This document shows positions 1,178 through 24,943 of a stretch of DNA of 64,000 nucleotides, piece after piece. How positions within the stretch are numbered: the first letter of the stretch is position 1; each line of letters starts with the position of its first letter. This DNA is from Bacteroidota bacterium (lineage in GTDB: Bacteria > Bacteroidota > Bacteroidia > Bacteroidales > WCHB1-69): assembly GCA_037130365.1 (NCBI GenBank), contig JBAXTE010000009.1, positions 4,452 through 68,451 of the forward strand, written 5' to 3'. The position numbers and the translations under genes were made by a program. The notes under the pieces are model-generated. The model was not told where the DNA came from and made no database searches. It worked only from the letters and a program-made list of their open reading frames with translations.

Positions 1178-1183
1178 AGAGTT

Positions 1184-4235: not shown

Positions 4236-4307
4236 TCTACTAGCATAAAAAGATAGCAATGTGTGATAAAAGTTCTTCAAATGCTTGTGTATTCGAAATA
4301 GAATTAT

Positions 4308-4315: not shown

Positions 4316-4335
4316 CACTCTTAATTCTAAAATAT

Positions 4336-6009: not shown

Positions 6010-6020
6010 TATTTTTTGTG

Positions 6021-6197: not shown

Positions 6198-6290
6198 TTT
6201 CTAGTTTCCGAATATGTCTGCTCCAGATTTTTTCTATAAGCATTCGGGTTTTCATTACGCTTGAGGTCTTCAATACGATATCATTCATCT

Positions 6291-7301
6291 TTAAAATTTT
6301 ATTTTTGTGGTTCTAGTAAAGGTGACAAGTTTGCCATTTTCAGTTTTATATTTGATTTCTTGATAACCTTGCTTTAAAACATGGTCGCAGTAACGTGAAA
6401 CTATGTCTACTTTTTTGGGCGTTTCGGTAACTTCAACCAGATTTATTCTTTTGCCTTTGTAATTGATTGTTATTTGCATAATATCATCTTTTCGGATTAG
6501 CTCTAAAAGTTCTCTTTCTTCCTTTGTCAGTATTCCAAGGCTGCTAATTATTAATGCTTTTTTTTCACTTAATAAGTAGTTTTTAATAATATCTGTCAAT
6601 GATATTGTTAAATGTGGCTGTAAACATTTTTCTGCTTTGTTAGCTGTTGTAGCTTTATCATAAAACTCATTTGAATTATATGGAGCATATCTTTTATAAA
6701 GTGTATCATTGCCATCTTCTAGAAAATATGCATCACCATCTTTGAATATTACTAATTGCATATTAACTCGCATGATTATGCTTTCTTGTATTACATTGTT
6801 GAAATTATTTGTTGTTGCTTGAAAAACTAACATATTACTGATTGACTCAAGTTTGTCAATTGGAATATTTTTATTTTCCTCATATGTCAATAGGTAAGCT
6901 GTGTTAAGTGTTTTTAATGCTTGGTTCTTTAGTTCAATAGGGTATATTAATTCATCTTTTACTTTTTTGATTAGTGTCAGACTAAGTCCAAAATCTCTTA
7001 ACTCTTTTACAATTTGAATCCAGAGAAATTCCGTGAAATTTAATTTTGTCCATTTCAAATCGGCTCTTGAATATTCTAATAAAATCTCATTTTTTTTCCA
7101 ACTCATTAAATTTTTAGAACTTACCTCTGTGTTGCTAACCTTGTATATCGGGCATAACATTTTTGCTTCGAGTACCATAATGTTTTCGGGACTATCATCA
7201 CCTATACTTTTGTCATATGACTGTAATAACTTAATAAAATCAATTTCAATTTCTGTTTCAATGCCATCCTTCTCTAGAAATTTGGCCTTTAATTTTTTCA
7301 T
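6291..7301 (-). CDS. Hypothetical protein with a MerR/excisionase-like helix-turn-helix segment
   Basis: 336 aa. The segment SSKNLMSWKKNEILLEYSRADLKWTKLNFTEFLWIQIVKELRDFGLSLTLIKKVKDEL follows the MerR-type pattern (..Y.E..GLL....R....Y....DL..L..I..L...G.SL.EI). It lies upstream of the recombinase on the same strand. Confidence 0.45.
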   Translation of the reverse strand: MKKLKAKFLEKDGIETEIEIDFIKLLQSYDKSIGDDSPENIMVLEAKMLCPIYKVSNTEVSSKNLMSWKKNEILLEYSRADLKWTKLNFTEFLWIQIVKELRDFGLSLTLIKKVKDELIYPIELKNQALKTLNTAYLLTYEENKNIPIDKLESISNMLVFQATTNNFNNVIQESIIMRVNMQLVIFKDGDAYFLEDGNDTLYKRYAPYNSNEFYDKATTANKAEKCLQPHLTISLTDIIKNYLLSEKKALIISSLGILTKEERELLELIRKDDIMQITINYKGKRINLVEVTETPKKVDIVSRYCDHVLKQGYQEIKYKTENGKLVTFTRTTKIKF

Positions 7302-7522
7302 ATATAAATATTATTTTTGCGTTTTTACAAATATAAAAAAAATAAATGATAAATGCAACATTATAGTAATGTTTTATTTAATTAAATACAACCTTATGTG
7401 TGTGTTTTATAATGAAATCACTGAATCTTTATATCATTATTATTTTATATGTTTCTTCTCTTTCCGCTTTCAGTAAAATATAAATAGTCTCTTTTTTTCT
7501 TTTGCAAAGCGTTATTTTTTTA

Positions 7523-7530
7523 TATCTTTG
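7523..7530 (+). promoter_or_regulatory. Candidate -7 promoter box (TATCTTTG) for the hsd operon
   Basis: Matches TAnnTTTG and lies 27 nt upstream of the hsdR GTG start, in a divergent AT-rich intergenic region. Confidence 0.45.
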
Positions 7531-7556
7531 AACCTTCATCATATAATATTTCCAAA

Positions 7557-10010: not shown

Positions 10011-10012
10011 CC

Positions 10013-10699
10013 ATGGGGGAATTAATTGAATCATTAAACAATAACGGGTCTGACCAATTTGGATTAGCATTGCTTTCATCAATCGAAGATTTGGGTTTAA
10101 GTATTTTATCTAAAACTGATTTCGAAACATTCATGTTTCATCATATCCTATTGCATCTAGATAAAACAAAAATTAAAAACAATTATGACCTAATGAGGTT
10201 GTTGAAAATCACTCCAAGCAAACTCAGAAGTTTGGAAATGAATAGGTCTGCAAAATTCCTTAATCTTGATTTGTCAAATATTGATAACTGGAGAATGATT
10301 TTTAATGCACTTGATGGCAAAAAGATAGAAACGGAGGATAAAGATAACGGCAAAGTACGAATCTATATTGAAGAATTACATGTACACCGACTAATTGAAA
10401 GATTTGTAGTTGAGGGTGGTTCATCAATAGATTACACTTTGAATAAGAATCAGTTAGTAATTAAATACACTGAGTTTTTATCATTATTAAATGCAATTTT
10501 AGTAAAAGCTAAAAAAGAACCTTTATTGACTGCTATAAATAAAGACAAAAGTCAATTTAAAGTTAAGAAAGAATTTGAGAGCTTTCAAAACATAATTTCG
10601 GATGTTAAGGAAGCAATGAAGGATGCGACATTTGAAAAAGCAGCTGAATTTGCATTAAACAAAATAATAAAAATTGCAAAAGACAAATTAGGATTATGA
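10013..10699 (+). CDS. Uncharacterised protein embedded between hsdR and hsdM
   Basis: 228-aa ORF that starts 2 nt after the hsdR stop and overlaps the hsdM start by 4 nt (ATGA). I recognise no motif in it. Confidence 0.8.
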   Translation: MGELIESLNNNGSDQFGLALLSSIEDLGLSILSKTDFETFMFHHILLHLDKTKIKNNYDLMRLLKITPSKLRSLEMNRSAKFLNLDLSNIDNWRMIFNALDGKKIETEDKDNGKVRIYIEELHVHRLIERFVVEGGSSIDYTLNKNQLVIKYTEFLSLLNAILVKAKKEPLLTAINKDKSQFKVKKEFESFQNIISDVKEAMKDATFEKAAEFALNKIIKIAKDKLGL

Positions 10700-12123
10700 G
10701 CAACATCGGAGGAGTAATAAAATCAATACGGGACATATTCAGAAAAGACCCTGGTTTGAGTGGCGATGCACAACGCATTGAGCAATTGGGATGGATGATT
10801 TTTTTAAAACTGTTTGATGATAAAGACAAGGAAAAGGAAATTCTTGATTTGAATTACAAATCCCCGATACCTGCAGAATTACAGTGGAGAAATTGGGCAG
10901 AAAACGATGAAGGAATCACAGGAGAAGAGCTTATCAATTTTGTGAATAACAAATTATTTCCCCAACTGAAGGAATTGCATATTACGGCAGACAACAGATT
11001 AGGCGTAATCATCCGTCAAATATTCGATGGAACCAACAATTATATGAAAAGTGGCACCACCTTTCGTCAGGCCATCAACAAACTCAACGAAATAGATTTC
11101 AATAGCAGCAAAGAACACCACGTGTTCAATGCAATCTATGAAGATATACTTCAAGGACTTGCCACCAAAAAAGACACAGGCGAATTTTATACACCAAGGG
11201 CAGTCACTCAATTTATCATCGACATGGTAAATCCAAAATTGAGCGAAAAAATTATTGACCCCGCATGTGGCACCGCTGGTTTTTTGGTTTGTGCCATAGA
11301 GCATTTGCGTAAGCAGGTAAACAATGTGGCAGACCGTAAAATATTGCAAGAAACCATAACAGGAACCGAATTGAAGCCGCTTCCGTTTATGTTGAGTATC
11401 ATCAACTTGATTACGCATGATATTGAAGTGCCAAAAATTGAGAATGACGATGCCTTGAGCCGTGAGTTAAGCTCCATTTCAAGAAAAGAGCAAGTGGATA
11501 TCATTGTTGCAAACCCTCCATTCGGTGGCGTGGTAGGTGATGGCATGGAAAACAACTTCCCGATGAACTTTCGCACCAAAGAGAGTGCCGACCTTTTTCT
11601 GATTTTGTTTATTCAACTGCTCAAAGATGGTGGCCGTGCTGGTATTGTATTACCCGATGGCAGCCTGACAGGTGATGGCGTAAAATCCAGAGTGAGAGAA
11701 AAACTATTGACCGATTGCAACCTGCACACCATTGTAAGGCTCCCACAGAGCGTATTTGCTCCCTATGCAACGGTAAACACCAATCTGTTGTTCTTTGCCA
11801 AAGGAACTCCCACAAAGGAGATTTGGTATTACGAACACGCATTGCCCGAAGGCTATAAAGCATACAGCAAAACGAAGCCGATTAAAATTGAGGAGTTCAA
11901 CGACATAAAAAAATGGTGGGACAACAGAACCGAAAGCGAAACCTGTTGGAAAGTCTCCATGGATACCATCAAAGAACGTGGGTTTGATTTAGACATCAAG
12001 AATCCAAATAAGGTTGTGGAAGAAGTGGAATTGAATATTATGAAAATTCTCGGAATTCTTAAATCTGAAAACAATAAAGTAAGCACAATTATCCAGGAAC
12101 TTGAAAACGATTTGGCTAAATGA
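10696..12123 (+). CDS. hsdM: Type I restriction-modification system, M subunit (N6-adenine DNA methyltransferase)
   Basis: 475 aa with a SAM-binding motif (IIDPACGTAGFL), catalytic motif IV (IVANPPFGG) and an HsdM N-terminal helical domain (QLGWMIFLKLFDD). Confidence 0.95.
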   Translation: MSNIGGVIKSIRDIFRKDPGLSGDAQRIEQLGWMIFLKLFDDKDKEKEILDLNYKSPIPAELQWRNWAENDEGITGEELINFVNNKLFPQLKELHITADNRLGVIIRQIFDGTNNYMKSGTTFRQAINKLNEIDFNSSKEHHVFNAIYEDILQGLATKKDTGEFYTPRAVTQFIIDMVNPKLSEKIIDPACGTAGFLVCAIEHLRKQVNNVADRKILQETITGTELKPLPFMLSIINLITHDIEVPKIENDDALSRELSSISRKEQVDIIVANPPFGGVVGDGMENNFPMNFRTKESADLFLILFIQLLKDGGRAGIVLPDGSLTGDGVKSRVREKLLTDCNLHTIVRLPQSVFAPYATVNTNLLFFAKGTPTKEIWYYEHALPEGYKAYSKTKPIKIEEFNDIKKWWDNRTESETCWKVSMDTIKERGFDLDIKNPNKVVEEVELNIMKILGILKSENNKVSTIIQELENDLAK

Positions 12124-13586
12124 CAATATTAGAACTATTTAAAAAAGTACATCCATCTGTATTAGCTGCCAAAATGATTTTTAAGCATTTGCAGGATAAT
12201 TACCCTGTTCTTAAAATATCTGACATTGCCGATACTTCAAGCGGGGGAACTCCAAATCGTGGAATGATTGAATTCTACAACGGTGATATTCCTTGGGTAA
12301 AATCAGGTGAATTAAAAGATGGCATAATAACAAAATGTGATGAATACATTACAGAAGCAGGATTAAAAAACTCTTCTGCAAAGTTATTTCCTAAAGGCAC
12401 TTTACTTGTTGCTATGTATGGTGCAAACATTGGGAAAACGGGTGTATTAGATTTTGATGCAACTACAAATCAAGCGGTCTGTGCAATATTTCCGAAAGTC
12501 GATATTTCAAAAGACTTCTTGTTTTGGTATTTCAAACAACAACGAATTGAATTTATAGCTATTGGCAAAGGTGGAGCACAGCCAAACATTAGCCAAACTA
12601 TAATTAATAATGCGTCAATTGTTGTGCCTGATGAAAAAACACAACAGAAAATTGTTGACTTCTTGGAAGCAATTGAACAAGGCAAAGGAATTGATGAAAA
12701 TTTCTTTATTCCCGAAGTGCTTGAAGATGTAGCACGAATTTACAAGTATAAGAACAACTATATAGATTTGTCTGTTAGCTTTGAAACCCAACTAACCCAA
12801 ATAGAAAACCTAAACCAAGCAATCTTACAAGAAGCGGTGCAGGGGAAATTGGTAAAGCAAGACCCCACAGACGAACCCGCAAGCCAACTACTCAAGCGCA
12901 TCAAAGCCGAAAAATTAAAATCTGGCAAAAAGGAAAAACCATTACCAGCCATCAAACCTGAAGAAATTCCGTTTGAAATCCCTGAAAATTGGATGTGGTG
13001 CAGGTTAGGCGATATTTGTTCAAAAATTGGCTCAGGGAGTACACCAAAAGGAAGTAATTATTCAAAAAATGGGTTCCCATTTTTTCGTTCACAAAACATC
13101 TATGACGAAGGTTTAGTTTATTTTGATATAAAATTTGTTTCAGAAGAAGTTCAAAAGCAAATGAATGGGACAATGGTACTTTCAAATGATATTCTTTTAA
13201 ATATTACAGGTGGTTCAATGGGACGTTGCGCAATAGTCCCAGATGACTTTAATCAAGGCAATGTAAGTCAGCACGTTTGTATAATCAGACCAATGGAAAT
13301 AGATAAAAAGTTTTTTCATAAAATTGTTTTATCTCCTTATTTTCAAAAAAAAGTTTTTGCTTCTACTACAGGTGCAGGTAGAGAAGGGTTGCCAAAATAC
13401 AATCTTGAAAGATTTGTTATTCCAATTCCACCACTATCCGAGCAAAAACGTATCGTATCTGAAATAGAAAAGCAATTAGCCAAAACCAAACAATTAAAGA
13501 TACACATTACAGCCAACCAACATGCCACCGAGCAACTGCTCAAAGCATTGTTGCATGGGGCTTTTGAGGTGGCGGAGGGCTTATGA
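12120..13586 (+). CDS. hsdS: Type I restriction-modification system, S (specificity) subunit
   Basis: 488 aa with two target-recognition domains (SGGTPNRG..., GSGSTPKGSNY...), each followed by a conserved helical spacer (IPIPPLSEQKRIVSEIEKQL). The start overlaps hsdM by 4 bp (ATGA). Confidence 0.93.
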   Translation: MTILELFKKVHPSVLAAKMIFKHLQDNYPVLKISDIADTSSGGTPNRGMIEFYNGDIPWVKSGELKDGIITKCDEYITEAGLKNSSAKLFPKGTLLVAMYGANIGKTGVLDFDATTNQAVCAIFPKVDISKDFLFWYFKQQRIEFIAIGKGGAQPNISQTIINNASIVVPDEKTQQKIVDFLEAIEQGKGIDENFFIPEVLEDVARIYKYKNNYIDLSVSFETQLTQIENLNQAILQEAVQGKLVKQDPTDEPASQLLKRIKAEKLKSGKKEKPLPAIKPEEIPFEIPENWMWCRLGDICSKIGSGSTPKGSNYSKNGFPFFRSQNIYDEGLVYFDIKFVSEEVQKQMNGTMVLSNDILLNITGGSMGRCAIVPDDFNQGNVSQHVCIIRPMEIDKKFFHKIVLSPYFQKKVFASTTGAGREGLPKYNLERFVIPIPPLSEQKRIVSEIEKQLAKTKQLKIHITANQHATEQLLKALLHGAFEVAEGL

Positions 13587-13622
13587 CAAAATATAATAAA
13601 GGATTGTATCTTGTTTCATTAG

Positions 13623-13630
13623 TACTTTTG
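13623..13630 (+). promoter_or_regulatory. Candidate -7 promoter box (TACTTTTG) ahead of the six-gene cluster
   Basis: Matches TAnnTTTG in the 75-bp gap after hsdS, 32 nt upstream of the ATG at 13662. Confidence 0.4.
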
Positions 13631-13661
13631 TATGTAATCATTAATTCTAATTTAGCGAAAT

Positions 13662-15623
13662 ATGAGTGAAATGTTAGCCGAAATAAGGCGAATTGTAAAC
13701 GAAGATATAAGTAGTCGTGTATCACAATATGATGTAATATTTGAAGCAATTACAAATGCAATTCATGCAAACGCAACAAATATAATTTGTACTTTTCATA
13801 CAGGAGAATATACTCTTAAAGAACATGATGTTATTGAAATTGCAAATAAGAAAGTTGATGATATAACAATTTTTGATAATGGAGATGGGTTTAACACTTC
13901 AAACTATAACTCCTTTTGTAAATACAGAACAGATTTAAAAAAGGATTTAGGTTGTAAAGGGGTCGGTCGGTTTGTGTTTTTAAAAGTGTATGACAATGTG
14001 CTTTATAAAAGCCAAATTGCAGATGAACAAATAGAAAAAGTGTTTAAGTTTAATCTTGACTTTAAAACAGAAAATATCAGTACCACTGAAACTAAAATTG
14101 AATCAAATACCACTGAATTATTTTTAAAAGGGTTAACTTCACAATACATTGATTATGATAAACATATAAATAGACGAATTGATTTGGATTTGGAAATAAT
14201 TCGTGAAAAGGTGTTGCTAAATCTAATCCCTACATTGTTTTTTTACAAAAAGAAAGGTGTTTTAATTAAAATAGACTTTGTTGATAGTACAACGTCTAAT
14301 ACTCTATCAATACTGGATTCAGATATTCCAGATTTTTTTGAAACACCATTTAAAATTACGGATAAAAACGGATTTAAATATGGCTTTACTTTAAATCATC
14401 GAATAGAGAAAGAGAGCGGTAAATTAAATGCATTTTATTGCGCAAACAATAGAACCGTATGCGAATTTTCAGATAAAGATTTTAAATTATCATTGCCTTA
14501 TGGCTATTCAGGTTACATGCTTTTAGAGTCGAACTATTTTGATTCTAAAGTAAATCACGAAAGAAATAATTTTGATATATTTCCTTTTAAAACAGATGCA
14601 TTTTCGCTTGTTTCTTGGGAAATGATAAATGCTAAACTCAAGTCAGTCATATCTGAAATTGTCAAGGAAGGTATTCCTGAAACAAATAAAATCAATCAGG
14701 AAAAATTAGAAGAAATTCAAAATGAAAGACCTTATTTGGTTAGCTATATCAATGAAGAAGATATTGACATGGCTGGTTTTTTAGATAAAAAACATCTTAT
14801 AGAGAAAGCAAAAAAACGTTTTGATGTTGAAAAAGAAAAACTGTTGACATCGGCTGGAAAAGAATCATACACAGATGAAGAATTGAGCGATGCAATAGAG
14901 ATTACACAAAACGAATTAGTATCATATATAAACGATAGAGCACAAGTTTTGGAACGATTACGAACCTTGCTAAACAAAAAAGAAAGAGTAGAATCCATAA
15001 TCCATAATTTGTTTATGGAAAGATATTCAGATGATGATTATTTTTCTGTCGGTAAAAATAATTTATGGTTATTAGATGATAGATTCACAACATATAGTTA
15101 TGCAGCCAGTGAAAAAAGGATTGCAGAAGTATTAAAACAAATAGGAGAAGAGTCCGAAGATGTTGAAATTTCCGATGACCGTCCCGATTTATCTCTTTTC
15201 TTTTCACATAATCCAAATTCGCCAGAGCGCTTAAAATCGGTACTTGTTGAGATTAAGCCATTTGATTATCAATCAAAATCAGATAGAAAAAAGTTTGCAG
15301 GCATTCAGCAATTAGTAGATTATGTGAAAGCTTTTAAAACAAAAGAAAATTTAGAAGAGATATTTGCATTTCTAATAACCGATATTGATGAAAAGCTTAC
15401 CACTCGATTAAAAGACAATGATTTCATTCCTTTGTTTTCAACTGAATCTCCAATTTTTCATAAGTTTTTCAATACACTTGGAATTTCTATATATGTTATA
15501 AGTGCTCACACTCTAATTAAAGATGCAGAAGCACGCAACAAAGTATTTCTGGACATTATAAGAAAACAAAGCAGGCTAAATAAGATATTACAATCAAATG
15601 AAGCAACTTTGATTTTAGAATAA
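13662..15623 (+). CDS. GHKL-superfamily (Bergerat-fold) ATPase with a C-terminal PD-(D/E)xK-like module
   Basis: 653 aa. The GHKL motifs are N-box FEAITNAIHA, DxGxG as FDNGDGF and GxxGxG as GCKGVGRF. Near the C-terminus, RPDLSLFF-x-VLVEIKP gives a literal PD...ExK spacing (D-x20-E-x-K). Confidence 0.75.
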   Translation: MSEMLAEIRRIVNEDISSRVSQYDVIFEAITNAIHANATNIICTFHTGEYTLKEHDVIEIANKKVDDITIFDNGDGFNTSNYNSFCKYRTDLKKDLGCKGVGRFVFLKVYDNVLYKSQIADEQIEKVFKFNLDFKTENISTTETKIESNTTELFLKGLTSQYIDYDKHINRRIDLDLEIIREKVLLNLIPTLFFYKKKGVLIKIDFVDSTTSNTLSILDSDIPDFFETPFKITDKNGFKYGFTLNHRIEKESGKLNAFYCANNRTVCEFSDKDFKLSLPYGYSGYMLLESNYFDSKVNHERNNFDIFPFKTDAFSLVSWEMINAKLKSVISEIVKEGIPETNKINQEKLEEIQNERPYLVSYINEEDIDMAGFLDKKHLIEKAKKRFDVEKEKLLTSAGKESYTDEELSDAIEITQNELVSYINDRAQVLERLRTLLNKKERVESIIHNLFMERYSDDDYFSVGKNNLWLLDDRFTTYSYAASEKRIAEVLKQIGEESEDVEISDDRPDLSLFFSHNPNSPERLKSVLVEIKPFDYQSKSDRKKFAGIQQLVDYVKAFKTKENLEEIFAFLITDIDEKLTTRLKDNDFIPLFSTESPIFHKFFNTLGISIYVISAHTLIKDAEARNKVFLDIIRKQSRLNKILQSNEATLILE

Positions 15624-15675
15624 AAAATACTTCTTGTTTCAAACCCCATTTATCAAACAAAAAAACAATAAGCAA

Positions 15676-16095
15676 ATGGAAACAACAGATGAACTATTGA
15701 GATATATTAAAACTCATGTGCCAAACTTTTCAAATCCTAAAATTATTAGCAGTGGTGTGGCTTATCACTATACAATGCATTCAGATTTAATTCAAAAAGA
15801 TGGGCGTATAAAAGGTAGAATAATTGATGAAAATATTGATTGCTCACAGAATGATTTTGTTTCTATTCCAGCGACAGAGAACAATGGTGTTGTTTTCGCA
15901 TATGAAAGTTTAGTAGAATCTAAATTGGAAGCTTTCGTTTTACCTGAAGATAAACAAAGAATTAAAATTATAAAAAATGATTATAATTCAGCTGTATACG
16001 CAAATCATCAGCAGGAAGTTGATTATACTGGTGCCCCACCAACAATTATTATTTTGGCTCATGAGATAACAAATTTTCAAATTATTTATCCTTAA
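15676..16095 (+). CDS. Small hypothetical protein (139 aa)
   Basis: The ORF is co-directional and lies 11 nt upstream of the next gene. I prefer the ATG at 15676 over the non-ATG start at 15634 in the track. I recognise no motif in it. Confidence 0.7.
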   Translation: METTDELLRYIKTHVPNFSNPKIISSGVAYHYTMHSDLIQKDGRIKGRIIDENIDCSQNDFVSIPATENNGVVFAYESLVESKLEAFVLPEDKQRIKIIKNDYNSAVYANHQQEVDYTGAPPTIIILAHEITNFQIIYP

Positions 16096-16106
16096 TTGTT
16101 TTTTAT

Positions 16107-16799
16107 ATGACTTATATTGTAGCAGGTAAATTAAGCTCATGCACATGTCTCATGGCAGATTGTATTGTTAATAGAACAGGTGATACTCCTATATTCACTG
16201 ACAAAATACGTAAACTTACCAGTTCAGATGATACGTTTTTTTCTGTAACGGGTAACTGTTTAATTCCCGAATCTGTTGAAATATTGGATATGTGGTTATT
16301 TTCTTTAGGCAGACCAAATGACTTTATTTCAGGTAATAATAGTATAACTGATTTAGTGAAGTTAATATCATGGCGTTTTGATAAATATCATCGTACAGAT
16401 GGTGCAAAATTAGATAACAATCGAATATTCTTTATTAATCGTGATTCTGTAATTTACTATAATTTATTTTATAATGAAAATAATCTCCTTACATCTAATC
16501 TTGCTAAAACAGTATTACAGAATAAAAAACAAATTACCAATATGTCGCCCCATCCTATATCATTTGATTTGATTTCTACAAGTAATCCACTACGCTATTG
16601 TAAATCAGTTATTGATGATTTAGCAAAATCGGAAAATAAAGATTTGAAAGACCGTTTTTCATATATTCAACTTAATAGTGATTCTGATGACATTATTATT
16701 TCACCTTTTAAGAAAATATCTGACATAGTTGCAGCTTATGAGGGGGCTGATTATAATCTTTTAGATGATATTTCTTTATCATGGGATGAAATAAAATAA
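16107..16799 (+). CDS. Hypothetical protein with a proteasome-beta/HslV-like N-terminal-nucleophile signature
   Basis: 230 aa starting MTYIVAG...CLMADCIV...DKIRKL...FFSVTGN. After Met removal this gives Thr1, Asp17 and Lys32. HslV and proteasome beta subunits have Thr1/Asp17/Lys33, with the same alternation of hydrophobic strands. Confidence 0.45.
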   Translation: MTYIVAGKLSSCTCLMADCIVNRTGDTPIFTDKIRKLTSSDDTFFSVTGNCLIPESVEILDMWLFSLGRPNDFISGNNSITDLVKLISWRFDKYHRTDGAKLDNNRIFFINRDSVIYYNLFYNENNLLTSNLAKTVLQNKKQITNMSPHPISFDLISTSNPLRYCKSVIDDLAKSENKDLKDRFSYIQLNSDSDDIIISPFKKISDIVAAYEGADYNLLDDISLSWDEIK

Positions 16800-16896
16800 C
16801 TCATCCGAACAAAGCCAAACTAGGTGAATAACATCATAATGTATCATTATCTTTAATCATTAATTGAAATAAAGTTCATACAAATAACAACAAATA

Positions 16897-17847
16897 ATGA
16901 ATGCTGAAATTAAATATATTGACATCTTAGATAGAAAAGCTGATTATGAATTGATTTATAAAGAAACATTTAGAACAGAATTGGGTCTAAGAGCAATATC
17001 AATAATGTATGATGAACATTCCAATGATAAGAAATCACATGACAATATTTTGAGATTTAAAGACAACATTCAATACAGGCTTTTTTCAGCAACTCATCAA
17101 TATTTAGTTCTATTAAAAGAGTTATGGGGGGCAGAATCTTATTTGCAAAATCTGTATAAAAAAAATCCTCGATATATTAATTCTTTCCCATTTGAAAATC
17201 CTTTTTTTGATAAAGTAGAACAAGAATTATCATCTGTTTTTGATAATGTAATTTTTCAAGTAACTTCAATTTTTGATTATTTAAGTCATATCGTGTGTTA
17301 TATCACTTTTACAAATAAAACAAATACTCTATATTGGACTAAACTTGCAAGAGCATCAAGAGGTCAAAATAATGATTTTTCAAACATTGAATTGAAAAAT
17401 ATAATAGACATTGTGGATAGGCGTTTTGTTGGTAAGCTTTATGATTATCGCTCACGATTAATTCACGATAAAAGAGATAGACACATTTTTAATGCTCAAG
17501 CAAAATTGATTGATTTCCAATTTAATTTACAATTGCTACCTTCTGATGTCGCTCTTAAACACTTTAAGCTCATAAAAGAGGAGATACCTGTAGGTGCAGA
17601 TGTTACGCTAACATATCTAGCATCATGGTTGATTAAAAGAGCATTTTTTGAAATTGAAACTATACTGGATGTGTTGTCAATTGAATTAAAAAAAGGGTCA
17701 AACTTCCACAGTAATTTGATAAACCCAAAAAGAGGTGATGATGCATTATTGTTTATAACAATGAATCCTGAAACAAGACAAGTTGAACCATTATCAAATG
17801 GTCTATGGAAGGAATATAAAGAAAAAACCAAATCAGTGAAACAGTAG
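16897..17847 (+). CDS. Hypothetical protein with an Rx4H (HEPN-like) motif
   Basis: 316 aa, predicted mostly helical. The motif LYDYRSRLIHDKRD contains R-x4-H, the minimal HEPN RNase signature. There is no other support. Confidence 0.35.
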   Translation: MNAEIKYIDILDRKADYELIYKETFRTELGLRAISIMYDEHSNDKKSHDNILRFKDNIQYRLFSATHQYLVLLKELWGAESYLQNLYKKNPRYINSFPFENPFFDKVEQELSSVFDNVIFQVTSIFDYLSHIVCYITFTNKTNTLYWTKLARASRGQNNDFSNIELKNIIDIVDRRFVGKLYDYRSRLIHDKRDRHIFNAQAKLIDFQFNLQLLPSDVALKHFKLIKEEIPVGADVTLTYLASWLIKRAFFEIETILDVLSIELKKGSNFHSNLINPKRGDDALLFITMNPETRQVEPLSNGLWKEYKEKTKSVKQ

Positions 17848-17860
17848 CAAAATCGACTCT

Positions 17861-19606
17861 ATGAAAACAAACTCCAATAATAGCTCCATTAGCTATATGC
17901 AATTACTAGAATTTAAATTAGTCTTTCCAGATGAAATACCGTTGTCCGTTGATGAGTATCTTAAAGGTAGTAATAGGGGGGATATACTAAATGCTGCTTC
18001 TCATTTTCTAGGTTTTAACCCCAATAATTCAAAAATATTAGATAATAGGGAGTTTTTAAGTAATTTTTTTTGCGCTGAAAACAATGATTTAGCTAACTAT
18101 GTTTATGGTGTAATTAAAAATATCGAGAAAACAGGCACAAAAGTGGGGGTAATCAATCCATATTCAAGTCTATCATTGTTTGAATGTTGTTATAAAAATG
18201 AAGAAAAAGAAGAAACACAATCAAATTCTGATTTTGAAATAAATCTCTTTAAAGCATATCTTGTATTAAACTCTCAATTTACAAGTAAGCAAAAAATTGC
18301 ATTTACTTCAACCCAAGATTTACATCCATTATTGATAAATCCCATGGAATTGTTTTGTATGCAATATCCGCTTGCTGATAAAGTAAATTACGACATCAAT
18401 AGGATATGGGTAAATCAGATGTTAAAAGCAACTCATTTATTTGTATTTCTTGAATCCAATGAGAAAACAGCACCTTTACTTAAAGCTTTTCTTGAGTTTT
18501 TTAATAAAAAAAACTGGCAAGATTTTTTAAAAAGCCTACTTCCTTTAACCAATCCAATGAAATATGCAGATAATGAAGGATTTATTGATTTTGGTGTAAA
18601 TAAGAATGATGATTTTCAAGGAAGTTGCTTGTTTATTGAAAAGTTTATTGTTGATGAAAATGATAGTTTTGATGAAAATGATTTTCTTAGTATTCGGGGT
18701 AAACCTTTTTATAAAGTTGAGGATGGAGTCTATCGGGTAATTTTTCCTTTATTTGTTGTCGAAAAGATATTTAAAGGATTGTATTTTTATTTAAGTGAAG
18801 TTAATAAAACGTTAGATAAGCCATTTGGAAATATCAAAAGCTTTTATGGTGGTGAGTTTTCTGAAAATATCCTGCTTTACAATGTAATGGGAAGCATCTG
18901 GAATAATAAATGTTGTAAGTTTTCAGGCAAACAGATTTCTGAAATGAAAATTGACGGGTTTATTGATTATTATGTTAGAAAAGGGAAAAATATTTTATTG
19001 TTTGAGTCCAAAGATTTTCTTATTAAAGCAGACAAAAAAGCTTCTTTTGATTTTAATATTTATGAGAAAGAATTTAAAAAGTTACTCTACTATGAAGACA
19101 TGCCAAATGGCAAAAGGAAACCAAAAGCTGTAATTCAATTAATAAATAGTATTCGCAAAATACTTAGAAGAGAGTTTGCCGCTGATAAAGATTATAAATA
19201 TCGTGAAGTAAATATTTACCCAATTCTAATAATTCATGATTCCCAATACGATGTGCCAGGTTTTAATTTTCTTATAAATTATTGGTTTCAGCAGGAGATA
19301 GCGTCACTAAAAGAAGAAGGGGTGTATACTCATAATATTAAACCACTTGTGGTTATTAATATTGATTCACTTTTATATTATCAAGTCGCTCTTGCAGAAA
19401 ACACACCACTCCACAATATTATAAATCAGTATGAAATTCAAACGAAAGGTTCAATAAATGACAAATCGGGGTTCGATAATAAGAAATTTGATAAATATAT
19501 TCCTTTTTCATATTTCATTGATGATTTTTTCAAGAATAAAGGCATTGCAAAATTCCCTCCCTTATTGGATTTTGTAGCCCCATTGTTATTCAGTAATGAT
19601 AAATAA
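17861..19606 (+). CDS. Large hypothetical protein with a C-terminal PD-(D/E)xK-like motif
   Basis: 581 aa. KIDGFIDYYVRKGKNILLFESKDF gives D-x12/16-E-x-K preceded by a hydrophobic strand. It starts 13 nt after the previous gene. Confidence 0.45.
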   Translation: MKTNSNNSSISYMQLLEFKLVFPDEIPLSVDEYLKGSNRGDILNAASHFLGFNPNNSKILDNREFLSNFFCAENNDLANYVYGVIKNIEKTGTKVGVINPYSSLSLFECCYKNEEKEETQSNSDFEINLFKAYLVLNSQFTSKQKIAFTSTQDLHPLLINPMELFCMQYPLADKVNYDINRIWVNQMLKATHLFVFLESNEKTAPLLKAFLEFFNKKNWQDFLKSLLPLTNPMKYADNEGFIDFGVNKNDDFQGSCLFIEKFIVDENDSFDENDFLSIRGKPFYKVEDGVYRVIFPLFVVEKIFKGLYFYLSEVNKTLDKPFGNIKSFYGGEFSENILLYNVMGSIWNNKCCKFSGKQISEMKIDGFIDYYVRKGKNILLFESKDFLIKADKKASFDFNIYEKEFKKLLYYEDMPNGKRKPKAVIQLINSIRKILRREFAADKDYKYREVNIYPILIIHDSQYDVPGFNFLINYWFQQEIASLKEEGVYTHNIKPLVVINIDSLLYYQVALAENTPLHNIINQYEIQTKGSINDKSGFDNKKFDKYIPFSYFIDDFFKNKGIAKFPPLLDFVAPLLFSNDK

Positions 19607-19636
19607 GCCAATAGTCAATATTATAAAAATAATTAT

Positions 19637-20620
19637 ATGCTAAGATTTAACCGTTATCTAAGCGATGATGCTTTTAAATTCCTGAAAAATAAAGGGTCGT
19701 GGATAATCCCCGAAATAATAAATGCTAGGCCATTTAATTGCGCTTTTGCTTTTGATATTCAAATTAGGGAAAACGATTATTTGATGGTTTATGTAGGAAC
19801 CACAAGTGTTCTTAAGATTCAATTAGGTGCAGATTTTGTAAATTTCTCAGCACATAAAACTTATAAGGATAGTTTCCTGAAAAAATACTTATTTACTGAT
19901 TTGCCTTATGGTGAAATCAGTAATTACCTTGGTCGGATTCTTCCAAAAGTGGATTCAAGATATTTTGAAAATCACAAAGAAGGCTATTATCAAAATTACT
20001 TATGTTATCATTTGGGGGAAGTTGCAAGCAAAGATTCTCCATTTATTATTTTTGATAGAGAATGTGTTTTAGGTTTCGATAATAGCAATGAAAAAATAAA
20101 TCATCTGACACCATTGAAAAATAAATATGAACAAATTAGAACCGATTTACAAGAAAATAATTCAAAAAGATGGGGTATGCCAAAGTTAAAATCACTGGGA
20201 GACGAGTTGGATATGTTGGCCATTGATAATAATTGCAATCTCATTTGTATAGAATTAAAACATTCATTAAATGGTTCTGGTATTTATTGGACTCCGCTTC
20301 AAGTTTCATTATATCGAGACGCATTTGAAAGTGCTAACAATCAAGTTGTTTTTGATAGCATTAAGAAAATAATCTCTCAAAAAGCAGAATTAGGACTTTT
20401 ACCTGATTGTGTAAATAGTATCATGGATAAAAACAATTCATTCAATAAAATCATTTCACTTGTTGCAGTAGGAGGAGAGGTGAACAAAAAAATGAGTTGT
20501 TGGAGTAAATTTGAAGAAGTATGTGCTAAAAGTCCAAAAGATTTACAAAACCAAATATTTGTTTTCAATGAGAATAATTTAGGTAATTACATGTCAGTAA
20601 TTAGTGGAGTATTGGGCTAA
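19637..20620 (+). CDS. Hypothetical protein with a PD-(D/E)xK nuclease-like core (Shedu/NucS-style D...hhhhELK pattern)
   Basis: 327 aa. GDELDMLAIDNNCNLICIELKHS matches the D-x(8-13)-E-x-K pattern with a preceding beta-strand-like stretch. This is the last gene of the co-directional cluster. Confidence 0.45.
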   Translation: MLRFNRYLSDDAFKFLKNKGSWIIPEIINARPFNCAFAFDIQIRENDYLMVYVGTTSVLKIQLGADFVNFSAHKTYKDSFLKKYLFTDLPYGEISNYLGRILPKVDSRYFENHKEGYYQNYLCYHLGEVASKDSPFIIFDRECVLGFDNSNEKINHLTPLKNKYEQIRTDLQENNSKRWGMPKLKSLGDELDMLAIDNNCNLICIELKHSLNGSGIYWTPLQVSLYRDAFESANNQVVFDSIKKIISQKAELGLLPDCVNSIMDKNNSFNKIISLVAVGGEVNKKMSCWSKFEEVCAKSPKDLQNQIFVFNENNLGNYMSVISGVLG

Positions 20621-21645
20621 TACGCCATAACTTAAAACAAGCAGAAAATTCATAGGTAGAAAGTAACTAACAATAATGGAAGCACGAGTAAAATTTTAGC
20701 ATTCCCTCCCACAAACCAAAAGCAGGTAATAAATCGTCCTCTGCCTCCGAAAATCAGCACCAGCCTGCAAAATCCCCGCCCTTCACTTAAAATGAAGCGT
20801 TCAGGGCTTGCTTGGTCTTTTCCAGGCTTCCCCACAGCATCCCACAGTTGTTTTTTTCTGTCACACTTCTTGCAAAATTATCCCACATGGCACATTGCTT
20901 TCCCGAAAAAAGCAATAAGCCAACCATCCCACAAAAGCAAAAAGGCGCTACATTCCAACCACCACCACCATTCCGCTTGTGCCAGAAATAAAACAACCCA
21001 AAGCTAAATAACATAATGTGGCATTATAGTATATTCCCGATGGGCTCCACTACGTTACGGGGTTGCCACCCAATATCCTATAAAAACATTATATTAAATA
21101 GCCGCACAGGCATCCCACAGTTCCCACTCCGTTGCCACAAATCCCCACCGCCCATTTATAAGGTGTAGGGTAAGTAAAGCATAAAATTTTATGGCAAAGT
21201 GCTTAAAAGCAGGTTCATTCGCTCTCACTACGTTACGTTTCGGACACTCCGTTCATTTCGCTTTGCTACAATCACTACATTATCCTTCACTACACTTTGC
21301 ATTCGTTCATTTCTCCAGCGCAGCACCGCACAGCAAAAGTGCCTCACTCATTCCACTCCACAATCAAAACCAACAAATCTTTCACTACGCATCTACAGGC
21401 ATAATTTAAACATTTTTAAATAAACAAAATTCTATAAAGCAAATTATACCTGACAGTTGCTACGTTCAAACCTTAAATCAATTGTTTCGTTACATTCAAT
21501 CACCACCCTTGCTCATCCATCCCACATATAACAAGGTATGCTTTACTTCCCCCACTAAGTATTTGTCCCCTTTATGCTCATAATACCTCTCATAATTTAG
21601 GTACAGTTATTGTTTATTTAAGCTATTGAAATTCAATTTTAAACT
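20621..21645. other. ORF-free, C-rich (plus strand) region of about 1 kb with recurring short motifs; candidate structured ncRNA, protein-binding array or decayed foreign DNA
   Basis: No ORF exceeds 75 aa in any frame, even though the region is visibly less AT-rich than its surroundings. ATCCCACA occurs five times (20839, 20880, 20926, 21112, 21519). CACAG(G)CATCCCACAGTT occurs twice (20833, 21105). CACTACGTTACG occurs twice (21048, 21226). CGTTCATTTC occurs twice (21250, 21304). TCACTAC occurs four times. Confidence 0.6.
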
Positions 21646-22182
21646 ATGAAAAAAATCACACCAATCATTATCCTATTACTTTTTTCTTTTAAAAGTTATA
21701 GTCAAGATTTAAATAATTCAAACCTTATTAAAGAGTCTCGTAAATTATATATTGACAGTCTTTTAAGTATTTATAAAGGCAATATTAAAGACCCGATAAT
21801 TCTATATTCTAATGAACTTCCAAATAATTATACTCTTCCTCCTTCAAATATTTTAAATTTAGAGGCAAACTGGTACAGCTATTATAGTACATGTAAACAA
21901 AGAACAAAAATCAATACTAATTACAAAGTAGAAGAAATTTCAGACACAACTATTATAATTGGATTCTATTTAGTTAGGGAATATAGAAAACACTTTTTAT
22001 TTTTATTTCCGACAAAAGGCTCAATAATCAGACCTTTAAATTATTCAAAAAACAACTATAATGATTTTTGTGAAAAAAATTATTATATGCAATTCTATTA
22101 TAAATACGATTGTATAAATCATAAATGGATATTAGTTCCTGAACATTCATTTCGTAATTATCCAAAAGTTTTTGAAATTTAG
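21646..22182 (+). CDS. Secreted hypothetical protein
   Basis: 178 aa with an N-terminal signal peptide (MKKITPIIILLLFSFKSYSQ). I recognise no motif in it. Confidence 0.7.
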   Translation: MKKITPIIILLLFSFKSYSQDLNNSNLIKESRKLYIDSLLSIYKGNIKDPIILYSNELPNNYTLPPSNILNLEANWYSYYSTCKQRTKINTNYKVEEISDTTIIIGFYLVREYRKHFLFLFPTKGSIIRPLNYSKNNYNDFCEKNYYMQFYYKYDCINHKWILVPEHSFRNYPKVFEI

Positions 22183-22262
22183 AGCCTTATTATAGATAAA
22201 AAAACAAAAAGCAAGCAAAGATAGGTTGGCTTTCCCCAAGTATATCAAAACTCTCATTATAA

Positions 22263-22355
22263 GGCTATCAAGGTCGTGGCACTTCGTGTTTTGCAATATA
22301 AATCTCCAGTCAGCCAAAGGCTGATAGTATTTATATCGCAAAAACCTTGACAGCC
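22263..22355. other. Long nested imperfect hairpin in an intergenic region
   Basis: There are three coaxial stems. The outer stem is GGCTATCAAGGT (22263-22274) with ACCTTGACAGCC (22344-22355), 12 bp with 1 mismatch. The middle stem is TTGCAATATAAAT (22291-22303) with ATTTATATCGCAA (22329-22341), 13 bp with 1 mismatch. The apical stem is TCAGCC-AAA-GGCTGA (22310-22324). Confidence 0.6.
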
Positions 22356-22467
22356 TACTACGCCACCCTTTTAGATGGCTTTCTTTTTCTTTTTTTTTAG
22401 TTTTTTCATTTTTCTTTGTTAAATTTTGATGTGAGCGTAGCGAAGCTAATTTTTTAAAGCTCGCATT

Positions 22468-22890
22468 ATGGAAACGTTACAAATCAAATCGCACAAAATC
22501 GGCAGAGAATACACACAGCCACATTTTTTCATCCTTAACAAAGGAAACAATAGCGGAAAACCATTAAATCAACCATGCCCGAATTGCTTTGTCTGCATCA
22601 CAAACACTTCAAACGACAGAGAACAATTATATTGGCTTTTATATGGCTTATGGCGTTCAAACTCCTTTTATCAATACCTTAGAGGTTCTGTTATTCCTTT
22701 TATCGTGGTAAGGGACTTAAAATCGTGTATTATCAGCGCCAATTCAATTGCTGCAATAAATCAGGATGATTTTAATAAATCCGTGTCAACCCTTCGCACT
22801 CTTGAGAATCTGGAAGCTACCTACAAAAAGAACCTTCAACTAATCGACCAAGCAAAAAAAGCAGTTTTTAAAATATTTTCGCCTCATTAA
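22468..22890 (+). CDS. Hypothetical protein; weak resemblance to a solitary HsdS-type half (one TRD plus conserved helix)
   Basis: 140 aa. The C-terminal FNKSVSTLRTLENLEATYKKNLQLIDQAKKAVFKIF resembles the conserved helical spacer of S subunits. The resemblance is judged by eye only. Confidence 0.3.
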   Translation: METLQIKSHKIGREYTQPHFFILNKGNNSGKPLNQPCPNCFVCITNTSNDREQLYWLLYGLWRSNSFYQYLRGSVIPFIVVRDLKSCIISANSIAAINQDDFNKSVSTLRTLENLEATYKKNLQLIDQAKKAVFKIFSPH

Positions 22891-22958
22891 GTCCGTATCA
22901 AGTCCGTTTTTATTTTTTTATACTATTTAATAATATAACCAATTAAAAAACAAATATT

Positions 22959-23609
22959 ATGGGAAAATTAAAAAATGGAATTTTGGGAATCACAGTAGGA
23001 AAAGTGGGTAATGTGGTCGGTTCTAAATGGAAAAACATAAATACTGTACGTATTTATCAACCACAAATCTATAATCCTCGAACAGTTTCACAAACTGCTC
23101 AACGTAGCAAATTCAGCACTACAGTAGCTTTTGTAAGACAAGTATTACCACTTATAAACGAGATTTATGCTGGTAGTTTAACAAAAATGTCACCTTTCAA
23201 CAAGGTAACAAGTCTTATCGTGAAAAATGCTTTTGTTGGTGAACCTCCAGTTCTTGACCAAACATTAGTAAAACTTGGAGATATTGAAGGAAGTGAAGTT
23301 TTAAATGTAGTTAACACTGGAGTTCCTGACCAAATTATGAAAATAACTTGGGAACCTAACTCGATTATCCAAGCTGAACTTGATTCAAAATTATCCTTTG
23401 TGTTAATCAACTGTGTTACAAACAAAGCGATGATTTTCAGTGAAGTTGCTGCACGTTCTGAAGGTTCAACCCAAATCACAGCTCCCCGCAGTTGGGCTGA
23501 TTGTGATTCAGCACTTCATGTTATTACTACTGATTATAGCAATCCTGTTAAACCAAAAAAAGTAGTTAAATTCTGCCCTGGAAACGAACTTTCTGGACAC
23601 ATTAAATAG
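22959..23609 (+). CDS. Conserved-looking hypothetical protein (Bacteroidota-type, function unknown)
   Basis: 216 aa. The N-terminus MGKLKNGILGITVGKVGNVVGSKWKNINTVRIY looks like a family of uncharacterised Bacteroidota proteins that I recall only vaguely. It is followed by a strong terminator. Confidence 0.6.
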   Translation: MGKLKNGILGITVGKVGNVVGSKWKNINTVRIYQPQIYNPRTVSQTAQRSKFSTTVAFVRQVLPLINEIYAGSLTKMSPFNKVTSLIVKNAFVGEPPVLDQTLVKLGDIEGSEVLNVVNTGVPDQIMKITWEPNSIIQAELDSKLSFVLINCVTNKAMIFSEVAARSEGSTQITAPRSWADCDSALHVITTDYSNPVKPKKVVKFCPGNELSGHIK

Positions 23610-23626
23610 TTTATCTTTTTTATTTT

Positions 23627-23661
23627 AAGGCTAGTATTTTAATTAATACTAGCCTTTTTTT
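23627..23661 (+). terminator. Rho-independent terminator
   Basis: AAGGCTAGTATT / AATACTAGCCTT 12-bp stem followed by a T-run. Confidence 0.8.
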
Positions 23662-23827
23662 GTCCTAATATATACTAGTTAGAGTATTACTCTGTATTAC
23701 TTATCATATTACTAATTAACTCTTATATTAGAATAAATATTTTCTACAATATGGTCTTCTTTTAAAAACTGAGCTAAATCAATGAAAGACAAGTAATCTT
23801 CAACAAAACGGTTAGATATTGGGACAC

Positions 23828-23839
23828 TTCCCGCTACAA
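23828..23839 (+). repeat. Right copy of the island direct repeat (attR core candidate; displaced tRNA 3' end)
   Basis: TTCCCGCTACAA is identical to 4401-4412 and is followed by the terminator hairpin at 23842-23870. Confidence 0.75.
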
Positions 23840-23841
23840 AG

Positions 23842-23870
23842 AAAAAGCGACTTTATTGAGTCGCTTTTTT
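23842..23870 (+). terminator. Hairpin/T-run after the displaced tRNA 3' end (probable native tRNA-Met terminator)
   Basis: GCGACT-TTATTG-AGTCGC stem-loop flanked by an A-run and a T-run, starting 3 nt after the right direct repeat. Confidence 0.7.
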
Positions 23871-23904
23871 CGTATCGAAGTTTTTTAAATTATTGTATTC
23901 TGAG

Positions 23905-23920
23905 GAGCGTCGGATTCATA
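23905..23920 (+). repeat. Isolated copy of the tRNA-Met anticodon-arm segment, 65 bp outside the island's right repeat
   Basis: GAGCGTCGGATTCATA is an exact match to 4358-4373. The downstream sequence (TCCGTATATGC...) shows no continuation of the tRNA. Confidence 0.7.
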
Positions 23921-24106
23921 TCCGTATATGCTAAAATATTAGGCTCATTTAAGATAAAAATTAAAAATTTTCACCTTTTGAATTTAACCTATTTTTCCCT
24001 ACCTTTGGCTAAACAATTATGATTTAAATCTTCGTAATCAAGATTCATTGTATATTTCAATTTTAAAAAAGTAATTACACCCAAAACATCTGATAGAAAA
24101 AATAAC

Positions 24107-24943
24107 ATGACAAAAGAAATAGCAATAAAACTTTTTGAACAAACGCAAGTAAGAACGCTTTGGGATGACGAACATGAAAAATGGTATTTTTCAATTGTTG
24201 ATGTAATAGGCATTTTAACCGAAAGCATCGACTCATCAGCATATTGGCGTAAGCTAAAACAAAGACTAAAAGAAGAAGGAAATGAAACCGTGACGAATTG
24301 TCACGGTTTGAAAATGCTTGCCACGGATGGCAAAATGCGATTAACAGATGTTGCAGATACAGAACAACTTTTTCGGTTAATCCAATCAATTCCATCGCCC
24401 AAAGCCGAACCATTTAAACTATGGATTGCAAAAGTTGCACGTGAACGAATAGATGAAATTGAAGACCCCGAAATAGGGATTGACAGATTGATGGAGACCT
24501 ATTTTAGAAAAGGATATAGCAAAGAGTGGATAAATCAACGAATAAAAAGCATTGAAATCAGAAAAGAATTAACCGATGAATGGGAAAACCGTGGTGTAAA
24601 AAAAGGGCAGGAGTTCGCAATACTTACCGATGAAATCACTAAAGCATGGAGTGAATTAACTACAAAACAGTATAAATTACACAAGAACCTTAAAAAGGAA
24701 AATCTACGAGACCACATGACTAATCTTGAATTGGTTCTCAATATGCTTGCAGAAGCATCTACTACTGAAATATCTAAGGATAAACAACCAAAAACATTTA
24801 GCGAAAATAGAGAAGTTGCCCAAAAAGGAGGAAAAGTTGCAAAAGCAGCCCGTTTGCAATTAGAAAGTACTACAGGCAAAAAAGTAGTTTCTAAACTAAA
24901 TGCAAAAGATTTATCACAAATCGAACGAAAACGAATTAAATAA
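24107..24943 (+). CDS. Bro-N domain / DinD-like (phage antirepressor-type) protein
   Basis: 278 aa. The N-terminus (FEQTQVRTLWDDEHEKWYFSIVDVIGILTES...) fits the Bro-N pattern. The C-terminal half (RKELTDEW...LHKNLKKENLRDHMTNLELVLNMLAEAST) resembles the DNA-damage-inducible DinD family. Confidence 0.65.
   Translation: MTKEIAIKLFEQTQVRTLWDDEHEKWYFSIVDVIGILTESIDSSAYWRKLKQRLKEEGNETVTNCHGLKMLATDGKMRLTDVADTEQLFRLIQSIPSPKAEPFKLWIAKVARERIDEIEDPEIGIDRLMETYFRKGYSKEWINQRIKSIEIRKELTDEWENRGVKKGQEFAILTDEITKAWSELTTKQYKLHKNLKKENLRDHMTNLELVLNMLAEASTTEISKDKQPKTFSENREVAQKGGKVAKAARLQLESTTGKKVVSKLNAKDLSQIERKRIK

Follow-up and report, generated by a model that had tools for sequence, protein, structure and literature searches.

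In defence islands, unrelated immune genes cluster beside restriction-modification (R-M) systems and integrases. We analysed a region of this kind in a Bacteroidota bacterium: six genes, A to F, at positions 13662-20620 of a 64,000-nucleotide stretch of DNA (the window; contig JBAXTE010000009.1, positions 4,452 to 68,451). Two described kinds of protein are closest to the first of these genes. paraMORC3 proteins, described by Iyer, Abhiman and Aravind in 2008, have a GHKL ATPase domain, an S5 domain, and a C-terminal RecB-like nuclease domain with an E-D-ExK signature (PMC2292703). They are common in Proteobacteria and Bacteroidetes, some in R-M operons and some as stand-alone genes, and MORC and paraMORC proteins were proposed to function in DNA looping or end processing linked to restriction (PMC2292703). 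VcSduA is a validated single-gene defence protein in which the substitutions E27A (ATPase) and K557A (nuclease) each abolish defence (PMC12137116). Gu and colleagues place such proteins in Shedu, as members whose N-terminal domain is GHKL (bioRxiv 2023.08.10.552793).

The six genes are probably not one system. An initial annotation of the window had proposed that they form a single undescribed defence system or, as a fallback, several independent one- or two-gene systems. We found that homologues of A, D and E do not co-occur and that B and C have no homologues, which argues against a six-gene unit; the fallback matches the co-occurrence data. We conclude, with a probability of about 0.82, that positions 13662-20620 are the mosaic cargo end of a mobile defence island beside a tRNA-Met gene, and not one system. 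The six genes would be separately evolving single-gene modules packed head to tail and perhaps co-transcribed. The cluster is laid out as follows (nt, nucleotides; aa, amino acids).

13623-13630, plus strand: TAnnTTTG (Bacteroidota -7-like) box, read as TACTTTTG, 32 nt before the start of gene A
13662-15623, plus strand: gene A, 653 aa
15676-16095, plus strand: gene B, 139 aa from its ATG, or 153 aa if it starts at a TTG further upstream (15634)
16107-16799, plus strand: gene C, 230 aa
16897-17847, plus strand: gene D, 316 aa
17861-19606, plus strand: gene E, 581 aa
19637-20620, plus strand: gene F, 327 aa

Homologues of gene A were not accompanied by homologues of the other five genes. The gene A family gave 369 homologue matches, and the best 120 of these were 62-78% identical to A and came mostly from Bacteroidota. 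We collected 57 loci, one genome per species, with up to 10 kb of flanking DNA on each side (shorter at contig ends), and searched them by tblastn with all of the proteins encoded in the window. All of the loci had gene A, and none had B, C, D, E or F (0/57). Nor did B-F accompany the three nearest relatives of A (78, 73 and 72% identity), which were fetched separately. When the genes directly downstream of the A homologues were compared with B, C, D and F in a permissive phmmer search, no score was above 5 bits.

The other families gave the same picture. Gene E has 363 homologues; the best 120 have lengths of about 600 aa and identities of 52-57%. B, C, D and F were absent from all 77 metagenome loci with an E homologue, and a single locus (L114) had an A-like gene, a distant one (25% identity) about 6.5 kb upstream of E. 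Clustering of the neighbouring genes revealed no conserved partner of E among the 77 loci. For gene D, there were 202 representative clusters at an E-value ≤ 1e-3, and we read the neighbourhoods of six. All six were different and none had an adjoining partner from A-F (0/6): one D homologue followed a gene for a GmrSD_C protein, one was among genes for TIR, S24 peptidase, HEPN_LA2681, kinase and STAND proteins, and another was near SocA_Panacea and SMEK_N/MC8/DUF2326 genes. The only homologue of F that was found was 24% identical, on Pimelobacter plasmids, and its neighbours were unrelated. When B and C were joined into one query and searched against 5.8 billion proteins, C itself was the sole match, and tblastn with B and C against plasmids gave no match.

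Gene A goes with the R-M operon upstream of it rather than with B-F. The type I R-M operon that had been reported to the left of A, in a defence-island setting, was confirmed by Pfam and ends 75 nt before A.

7557-10010, plus strand: hsdR, type I restriction subunit (Pfam ResIII 8e-45, EcoEI_R_C 2e-35, HSDR_N)
10013-10699, plus strand: 228-aa gene between hsdR and hsdM, from the open reading frame (ORF) list, with no Pfam or PHROG match
10696-12123, plus strand: hsdM, type I methyltransferase (Pfam N6_Mtase 6.9e-68, HsdM_N)
12120-13586, plus strand: hsdS, type I specificity subunit (Pfam Methylase_S 4.1e-41, two stretches)

A DNA methyltransferase gene was within 6 kb of the A homologue in at least 17 of the 57 loci (seed-based scan), and the gene immediately upstream was co-directional with the A homologue in 39 of 53. 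In most of the R-M-linked loci, that gene and the A homologue are -4 to 111 nt apart; outlying gaps measured 175-341 nt. Neighbour clustering and Pfam annotation revealed three recurrent arrangements. In one, A comes after type III mod (N6_N4_Mtase) and res (ResIII), and some of these operons have an AAA_21/DUF4276 pair embedded in them. In the second, A is preceded by genes for an SNF2/PLD helicase, an Eco57I-like methyltransferase and an AAA_23 ATPase, in that order. The third, seen among distant relatives, is type I hsdM-A-hsdS...hsdR. On the Vibrio fluvialis plasmid pIDH5335-1 (L142), the order is hsdR, an AAA ATPase gene, hsdM, hsdS, Shedu, and then the A homologue. An A homologue is beside a type I R-M system on a Rhodococcus plasmid and beside a CBASS-like operon on an Acinetobacter plasmid. 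Recurrently, members of the family are the last co-directional gene of an R-M operon, of one type or another, or lie inside one. Because the conserved partners of A are upstream, the region can be partitioned into the R-M operon plus A (7557-15623) and unrelated cargo (15634-20620).

Some of these loci have features of their own. The AAA_21 and DUF4276 pair lies between mod and res of a type III operon that ends in an A homologue in L035 (5515-7274) and L020 (5525-7312). In L004, L006 and L043, and partly in L005 and L013, a row at about 900-12000 consists of a helicase of about 1100 aa, a methyltransferase of about 1200 aa, an AAA_23 protein of about 650 aa and the A homologue; this row looks like an R-M or DISARM-like system. 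In L142 (5409-8803), a canonical Shedu gene (SduA_C 1.3e-25) follows the type I R-M operon and overlaps the start of the A homologue by 4 nt, raising the possibility of a Shedu and GHKL-nuclease pair. The 228-aa gene of the window starts 2 nt past the hsdR stop codon, its own stop overlaps the start of hsdM, and it had no homologue in any locus that we fetched. Its slot in the V. fluvialis operon is occupied by a gene for a 596-aa AAA_21/SMC-like ATPase.

Gene A encodes a GHKL ATPase domain, a transducer (S5-like) domain, a helical linker, and a C-terminal domain of the restriction-endonuclease type, the last of which is a fold that we infer. The Pfam family HATPase_c_3 matched A at 25.6 bits (cut-off 25) and was present in 15 of 16 divergent homologues (best 4.2e-13). 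The motifs of A are EAITNAIHA (residues 28-36), DNGDGF (72-77), GCKGVGRF (97-104), PD (508-509) and EIK (530-532). An alignment that included sequences as little as 21% identical showed E28, N32, D72, G74, G76, G100, G102 and T151 to be invariant in the GHKL domain, and E444, NNLWLxDD (466-473), D509, E530, K532 and Q550 in the C-terminal third. With Y554 in the window protein, the C-terminal pattern corresponds to an E-D-ExK-QxxxY signature. The initial annotation had described A as a GHKL ATPase fused to a D...ExK module, and both parts of that description held.

The structure predicted for the N-terminal half is that of a two-domain ATPase. The AlphaFold model was confident for residues 20-296, with a predicted local distance difference test (pLDDT) score of 82-94 over residues 110-296. 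Foldseek matched it to GyrB, ParE, MutL, MLH1, PMS1, Hsp90, SMCHD1 and topo VI-B at 1e-10 to 1e-8 over 350-470 columns. Targets included two-domain ATPase modules such as GyrB 43K and the N-terminal domains of MutL, MLH1 and PMS1, and since the alignments are 350-470 columns long they probably reach the second (transducer/S5) domain. SMCHD1 ranked no better than GyrB or MutL. C-terminal segments of the family gave below-cut-off matches, each in a single member, to HSDR_N (5.7e-6), Tox-REase-9 (9.8e-5), NucS_C, PDDEXK_9 and VRR_NUC; weak as they are, these matches agree in theme. A profile of the C-terminal domain had no match in the PDB, and PDB sequence and profile searches with A yielded nothing meaningful. 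The family is sporadic in Bacteroidota, Proteobacteria, Actinomycetota, Verrucomicrobiota, Planctomycetota and other phyla. Five loci have an A homologue broken up into two or three ORFs (L029, L036, L055 and L057, at about 10000-11950; L047, at about 2966-4795), which suggests frequent inactivation or, alternatively, sequencing frameshifts in metagenome-assembled genomes.

Gene A resembles both paraMORC3 and VcSduA. Like paraMORC3, it has a GHKL domain with intact ATP-binding motifs, a transducer/S5-type middle domain, and a conserved C-terminal E...D...ExK with QxxxY as in RecB-type restriction-fold nucleases; its family, too, has members in Bacteroidota and Proteobacteria, some of them in R-M operons and others stand-alone. 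This likeness is one of architecture and not of alignment to the sequences of Iyer and colleagues. In the later literature, however, paraMORC3 refers to proteins carrying DUF4263, which Pfam did not find in the gene A family. A and VcSduA (Shedu type I-D) have the same domain order (a HATPase_c-type GHKL domain, an Hsp90/MORC-like middle domain and a C-terminal PD-(D/E)xK nuclease domain, which in A is predicted), the catalytic glutamate of motif I (E28 in A, E27 in VcSduA) and a nuclease lysine (K532 and K557), and A likewise appears as a single gene in a defence-island context.

The difference from Shedu is in the C-terminal domain. SduA_C/DUF4263 (PF14082) was not detected in A (E-value ≤ 1), and 16 divergent homologues, searched whole and as C-terminal segments, gave no match to it either, nor did three homologues from plasmids; the L142 Shedu protein, used as a positive control, matched at 1.3e-25. 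PADLOC models, those of Shedu among them, matched neither A nor the 16 divergent homologues, and hhalign of the A C-terminal profile against the L142 Shedu protein, and against F, found nothing. MzaB, Menshen and the other GHKL components in PADLOC were also considered for A and gave no matches. Based on these comparisons, A is paraMORC3-like by architecture; by analogy it may act like a GHKL-Shedu protein, and it is not a demonstrated member of Shedu. The computational description of this kind of protein dates from 2008, and a sister architecture was validated in 2025. In the mechanism that we envisage, a dimeric GHKL clamp would bind and hydrolyse ATP and in this way gate the C-terminal nuclease, which would cut invading DNA. 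A would either restrict DNA alone, like VcSduA, or process DNA engaged by the neighbouring R-M enzyme.

Gene D looks like a stand-alone HEPN-like protein of about 300 aa, as judged from its sequence family. It contains RSRLIH at residues 185-190, and the R-x4-H motif that had been pointed out in it (R185 and H190) was invariant: in 40 sequences of 21-64% identity, D127, R185 and H190 were the only invariant residues. The closest known proteins are stand-alone HEPN abortive-infection (Abi) proteins, for example those of the AbiU2 and Cthe_2314-like families, which Anantharaman and colleagues reportedly described in 2013. The gene D family is similar to stand-alone proteins of this type in its invariant R-x4-H, its single domain of about 300 aa and its defence-type neighbourhoods, but no HEPN Pfam model reached threshold; HEPN_Cthe2314 (E-value 0.0028) and HEPN_AbiU2 (0.029) each matched one of the 40 members below threshold. 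The D profile had no match in the PDB, searches of viral contigs with D alone and with the D alignment found no relatives, and tblastn against plasmids found none. D could be an RNase that relies on R185 and H190 and, as in abortive infection, arrests growth when the cell is infected.

Gene E probably encodes a stand-alone protein of about 600 aa with a helical N-terminal domain and a C-terminal nuclease domain of the PD-(D/E)xK type, to go by its sequence and model. The D...ESK motif noted previously (D369 and ESK 382-384) is invariant, with D369, E382 and K384 conserved in all 23 sequences compared. The AlphaFold2 model (pLDDT 75, predicted TM-score 0.78) is helical in its N-terminal half and alpha/beta in its C-terminal half. 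The best Foldseek match was the R.BspD6I small subunit (2p14; probability 0.95, E-value 0.14, not significant), and other fold matches in PDB and viral sets were to Hjc, McrC, RecU, VRR-NUC and Cas4, nearly all PD-(D/E)xK proteins and none significant. None of the 23 members matched a Pfam family. One UniRef entry names an E homologue 'NERD domain-containing'. A NERD assignment was rejected: E and 22 homologues had no NERD match at an E-value ≤ 0.1. Homologues of E on Hymenobacter plasmids adjoin MmeI and AbiEii genes.

Gene F is a stand-alone predicted nuclease of the PD-(D/E)xK type with an unannotated N-terminal domain. It has D192/D197...E206-L-K208...Q222xxxY226, as in RecB/NucS-type PD-(D/E)xK nucleases, and residues 188-232 had weak matches to five PADLOC PDC-S11 models (E-values 0.0015-0.02). 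The suggestion that F alone could be Shedu-like did not hold up, with no SduA_C at an E-value ≤ 1 and no BLASTP similarity to the Shedu control. F had no match in phages (tblastn) or viral contigs, and PDB sequence and profile searches with D, E and F gave nothing meaningful. E and F share with solitary PD-(D/E)xK defence nucleases (Shedu, NucS-like, PDC-S11) their D...ExK cores and, in F, the QxxxY; they are also single genes near R-M, Abi or integrase genes. They differ from these nucleases in lacking SduA_C and NERD. E matched no Pfam or PADLOC model, and solved nucleases only weakly (E-values ≥ 0.14), and F matched PDC-S11 over only about 40 residues (0.0015-0.02). Both may be DNases held in check by N-terminal domains that act as sensors or regulators.

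Genes B and C appear from the searches to be lineage-restricted ORFans. B had no family match in PADLOC, Pfam, NCBIfam or PHROGs; C had none in these four collections and no relatives in viral contigs. Overall, the GHKL match of A was the sole meaningful one when the six proteins were searched against PADLOC, Pfam, NCBIfam and PHROGs. In agreement with the initial annotation, no named defence system was matched in PADLOC-DB v2: A, D and E had no matches, and those of B, C and F were at chance level over short stretches (E-values ≥ 0.0015). Nothing was found that links the inferred activities of A, D, E and F.

The six ORFs have the properties of genes, and their coordinates and gaps as first annotated all agreed with the ORF list. 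They are separated by 52, 11, 97, 13 and 30 nt and 97% of the region is coding. The region has six frames that stay open for 139 codons or more, compared to a mean of 0.008 in 500 shuffled sequences, and all six have GC1>GC2>GC3, as expected for coding sequence. Every motif quoted from the translations of A, C, D, E and F was found. The TAnnTTTG box reported upstream of A is present at 13623, but as evidence it is weak. The window has 130 such boxes and 108 are expected by chance; with a frequency this near to chance, the box carries little weight. Sigma-70-like sites in the cluster were at chance level, and an Rfam scan of 13000-23000 gave no match.

Several observations weigh against the reading of the cluster as a mosaic. 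There was no terminator-like site inside the cluster, nor any further plus-strand TAnnTTTG in the A-F intergenic gaps. The lack of a terminator-like site makes co-transcription of A-F plausible and, given the tight packing, there may be some functional cross-talk in this one genome. One contig (L149, 159-7281) has both a D homologue (50% identity) and a distant E-like protein (22%, E-value 2e-21), in the order GmrSD_C, D homologue, a 369-aa protein without assignment, AAA_23 ATPase, E-like protein. It is the only D-homologue contig with an E-like gene, and the two are not adjacent; they are 3.3 kb apart with two genes between. F is the least well covered family in the co-occurrence comparison, and B and C, lacking homologues, add nothing to it. 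The C-terminal domain of A was modelled at low confidence (residues 430-550, pLDDT 30-50). The defence roles of all of these families are putative, and none had a significant PADLOC match.

We considered four other explanations of the locus. We give almost no credence to the view that A-F are one lineage-specific multi-gene system, with a GHKL motor or sensor and nuclease-like and peptidase-like effectors. The co-directional, closely spaced layout (gaps 11-97 nt), the single promoter-like box followed by no terminator-like site, and the failure to match any named system are all as it would predict; the large A, D and E families, however, never bring the others along, B and C are without homologues, and the conserved partners of A are in the R-M operon upstream and not downstream. 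A smaller private module of two or three genes, consisting of B and C and perhaps D, in which C is an N-terminal nucleophile (Ntn) hydrolase of the proteasome/HslV type, seems to us highly improbable. B and C are 11 nt apart and both are coding-like. Proteasome beta subunits have a Thr1/Asp17/Lys33 pattern, which T2, D18 and K33 of C (a protein that starts M-T-Y-I-V-A-G) resemble. Yet chance could easily produce agreement at three fixed positions. C had no Proteasome Pfam match at an E-value ≤ 1, no similarity in BLASTP to E. coli HslV, and no match to PDB sequences better than 0.08, with no Ntn hydrolase. In addition, neither B nor C had a homologue in the 5.8 billion proteins or in plasmids.

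The remaining two explanations concern what the genes are for. A could be an accessory subunit of the adjacent R-M system, the unit then being hsdR, the 228-aa gene, hsdM, hsdS and A (7557-15623), which is possible but on balance doubtful. Such a role was proposed by Iyer and colleagues (PMC2292703), and it agrees with the close spacing of A homologues at the end of, or inside, type I, type III and Eco57I-like R-M operons, with the methyltransferases of at least 17 of the 57 loci, and with the order on the Vibrio plasmid, where R-M is followed by A. About two-thirds of the A loci were nevertheless without a methyltransferase in the seed-based scan (17/57 being a lower bound), some A homologues are among housekeeping genes (L140), and the R-M systems that accompany A work by different mechanisms, which is easier to reconcile with co-localisation in islands than with a specific complex. 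VcSduA, a protein of equivalent architecture, protects alone (PMC12137116). That some or all of B-F are cargo without a role in defence, such as addiction modules, element-maintenance nucleases or decaying genes, is improbable in our judgement. The putative status of their defence roles and the lack of PADLOC matches favour it, as do the non-defence surroundings of some E and A homologues and the turnover implied by split A homologues (L029, L036, L047, L055 and L057). The neighbours of A, D and E homologues, however, are repeatedly R-M, Shedu, CBASS, AbiEii, GmrSD, TIR and STAND genes, and the catalytic-type residues of these three families are invariant.

The surroundings of the cluster are those of a mobile island. 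Two features mark its left side.

4336-4410, plus strand: tRNA-Met (CAT), found by ARAGORN, its 3' part overlapped by the end of the recombinase ORF
4369-6009, minus strand: large serine recombinase (Pfam Resolvase 3.6e-15; Recombinase and Zn_ribbon_recom below Pfam cut-offs)

The tRNA-Met gene is the likely integration site of the island, because the end of the recombinase ORF overlaps the 3' part of the tRNA, as in tRNA-integrating elements. No second copy of the 3' 26-mer of the tRNA was found in the 64-kb window at up to 3 mismatches, and the right-hand boundary of the island is therefore undefined. Genes A-F have a G+C content of about 29%, compared to 33-37% in the flanks. Like defence islands in general, the locus has a tRNA-adjacent recombinase, an R-M operon and a run of unrelated nuclease-type genes of lower G+C content, and genes of the cluster occur elsewhere in other combinations. 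It is unusual only in its very tight packing on a single strand and its two ORFans.

To the right of gene F, about 1 kb (20621-21645) has no ORF of 80 aa or more and no Rfam match. It is C-rich on the plus strand (GC skew about -0.2) with repeats of ATCCCACA, GCATCCCACAGTT and CACTACGTTACG, and could be the end of an element, an iteron- or oriT-like region, or an uncharacterised RNA. Genes at 22468-24943 encode DUF6943, DUF6266 and Bro-N domains, which suggests a phage-like or mobile element beside the island.

We conclude that the locus is an ordinary defence-island mosaic in which a few of the single-gene families lack annotation. That genes are packed tightly and in one direction beside an R-M operon is no evidence that they form a multi-gene system; the co-occurrence test splits the cluster into independent parts and groups gene A with the operon to its left. 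The large family of A, GHKL ATPases with a predicted nuclease domain, occurs widely in Bacteroidota and also outside this phylum, commonly follows R-M operons, and is without the Shedu domain. More speculatively, and with the odds against it, this family may be a lineage of GHKL nucleases independent of Shedu that plugs into type I, type III and Eco57I-like R-M systems as a second stage, for example by clamping and degrading engaged DNA, and D (HEPN-like) and E (helical plus PD-(D/E)xK) may separately be new single-gene anti-phage families that defence catalogues have missed. D and E are sizeable families with conserved catalytic-type residues, defence-type neighbours and no Pfam or PADLOC match at threshold, and are candidates for single-gene defence screens.

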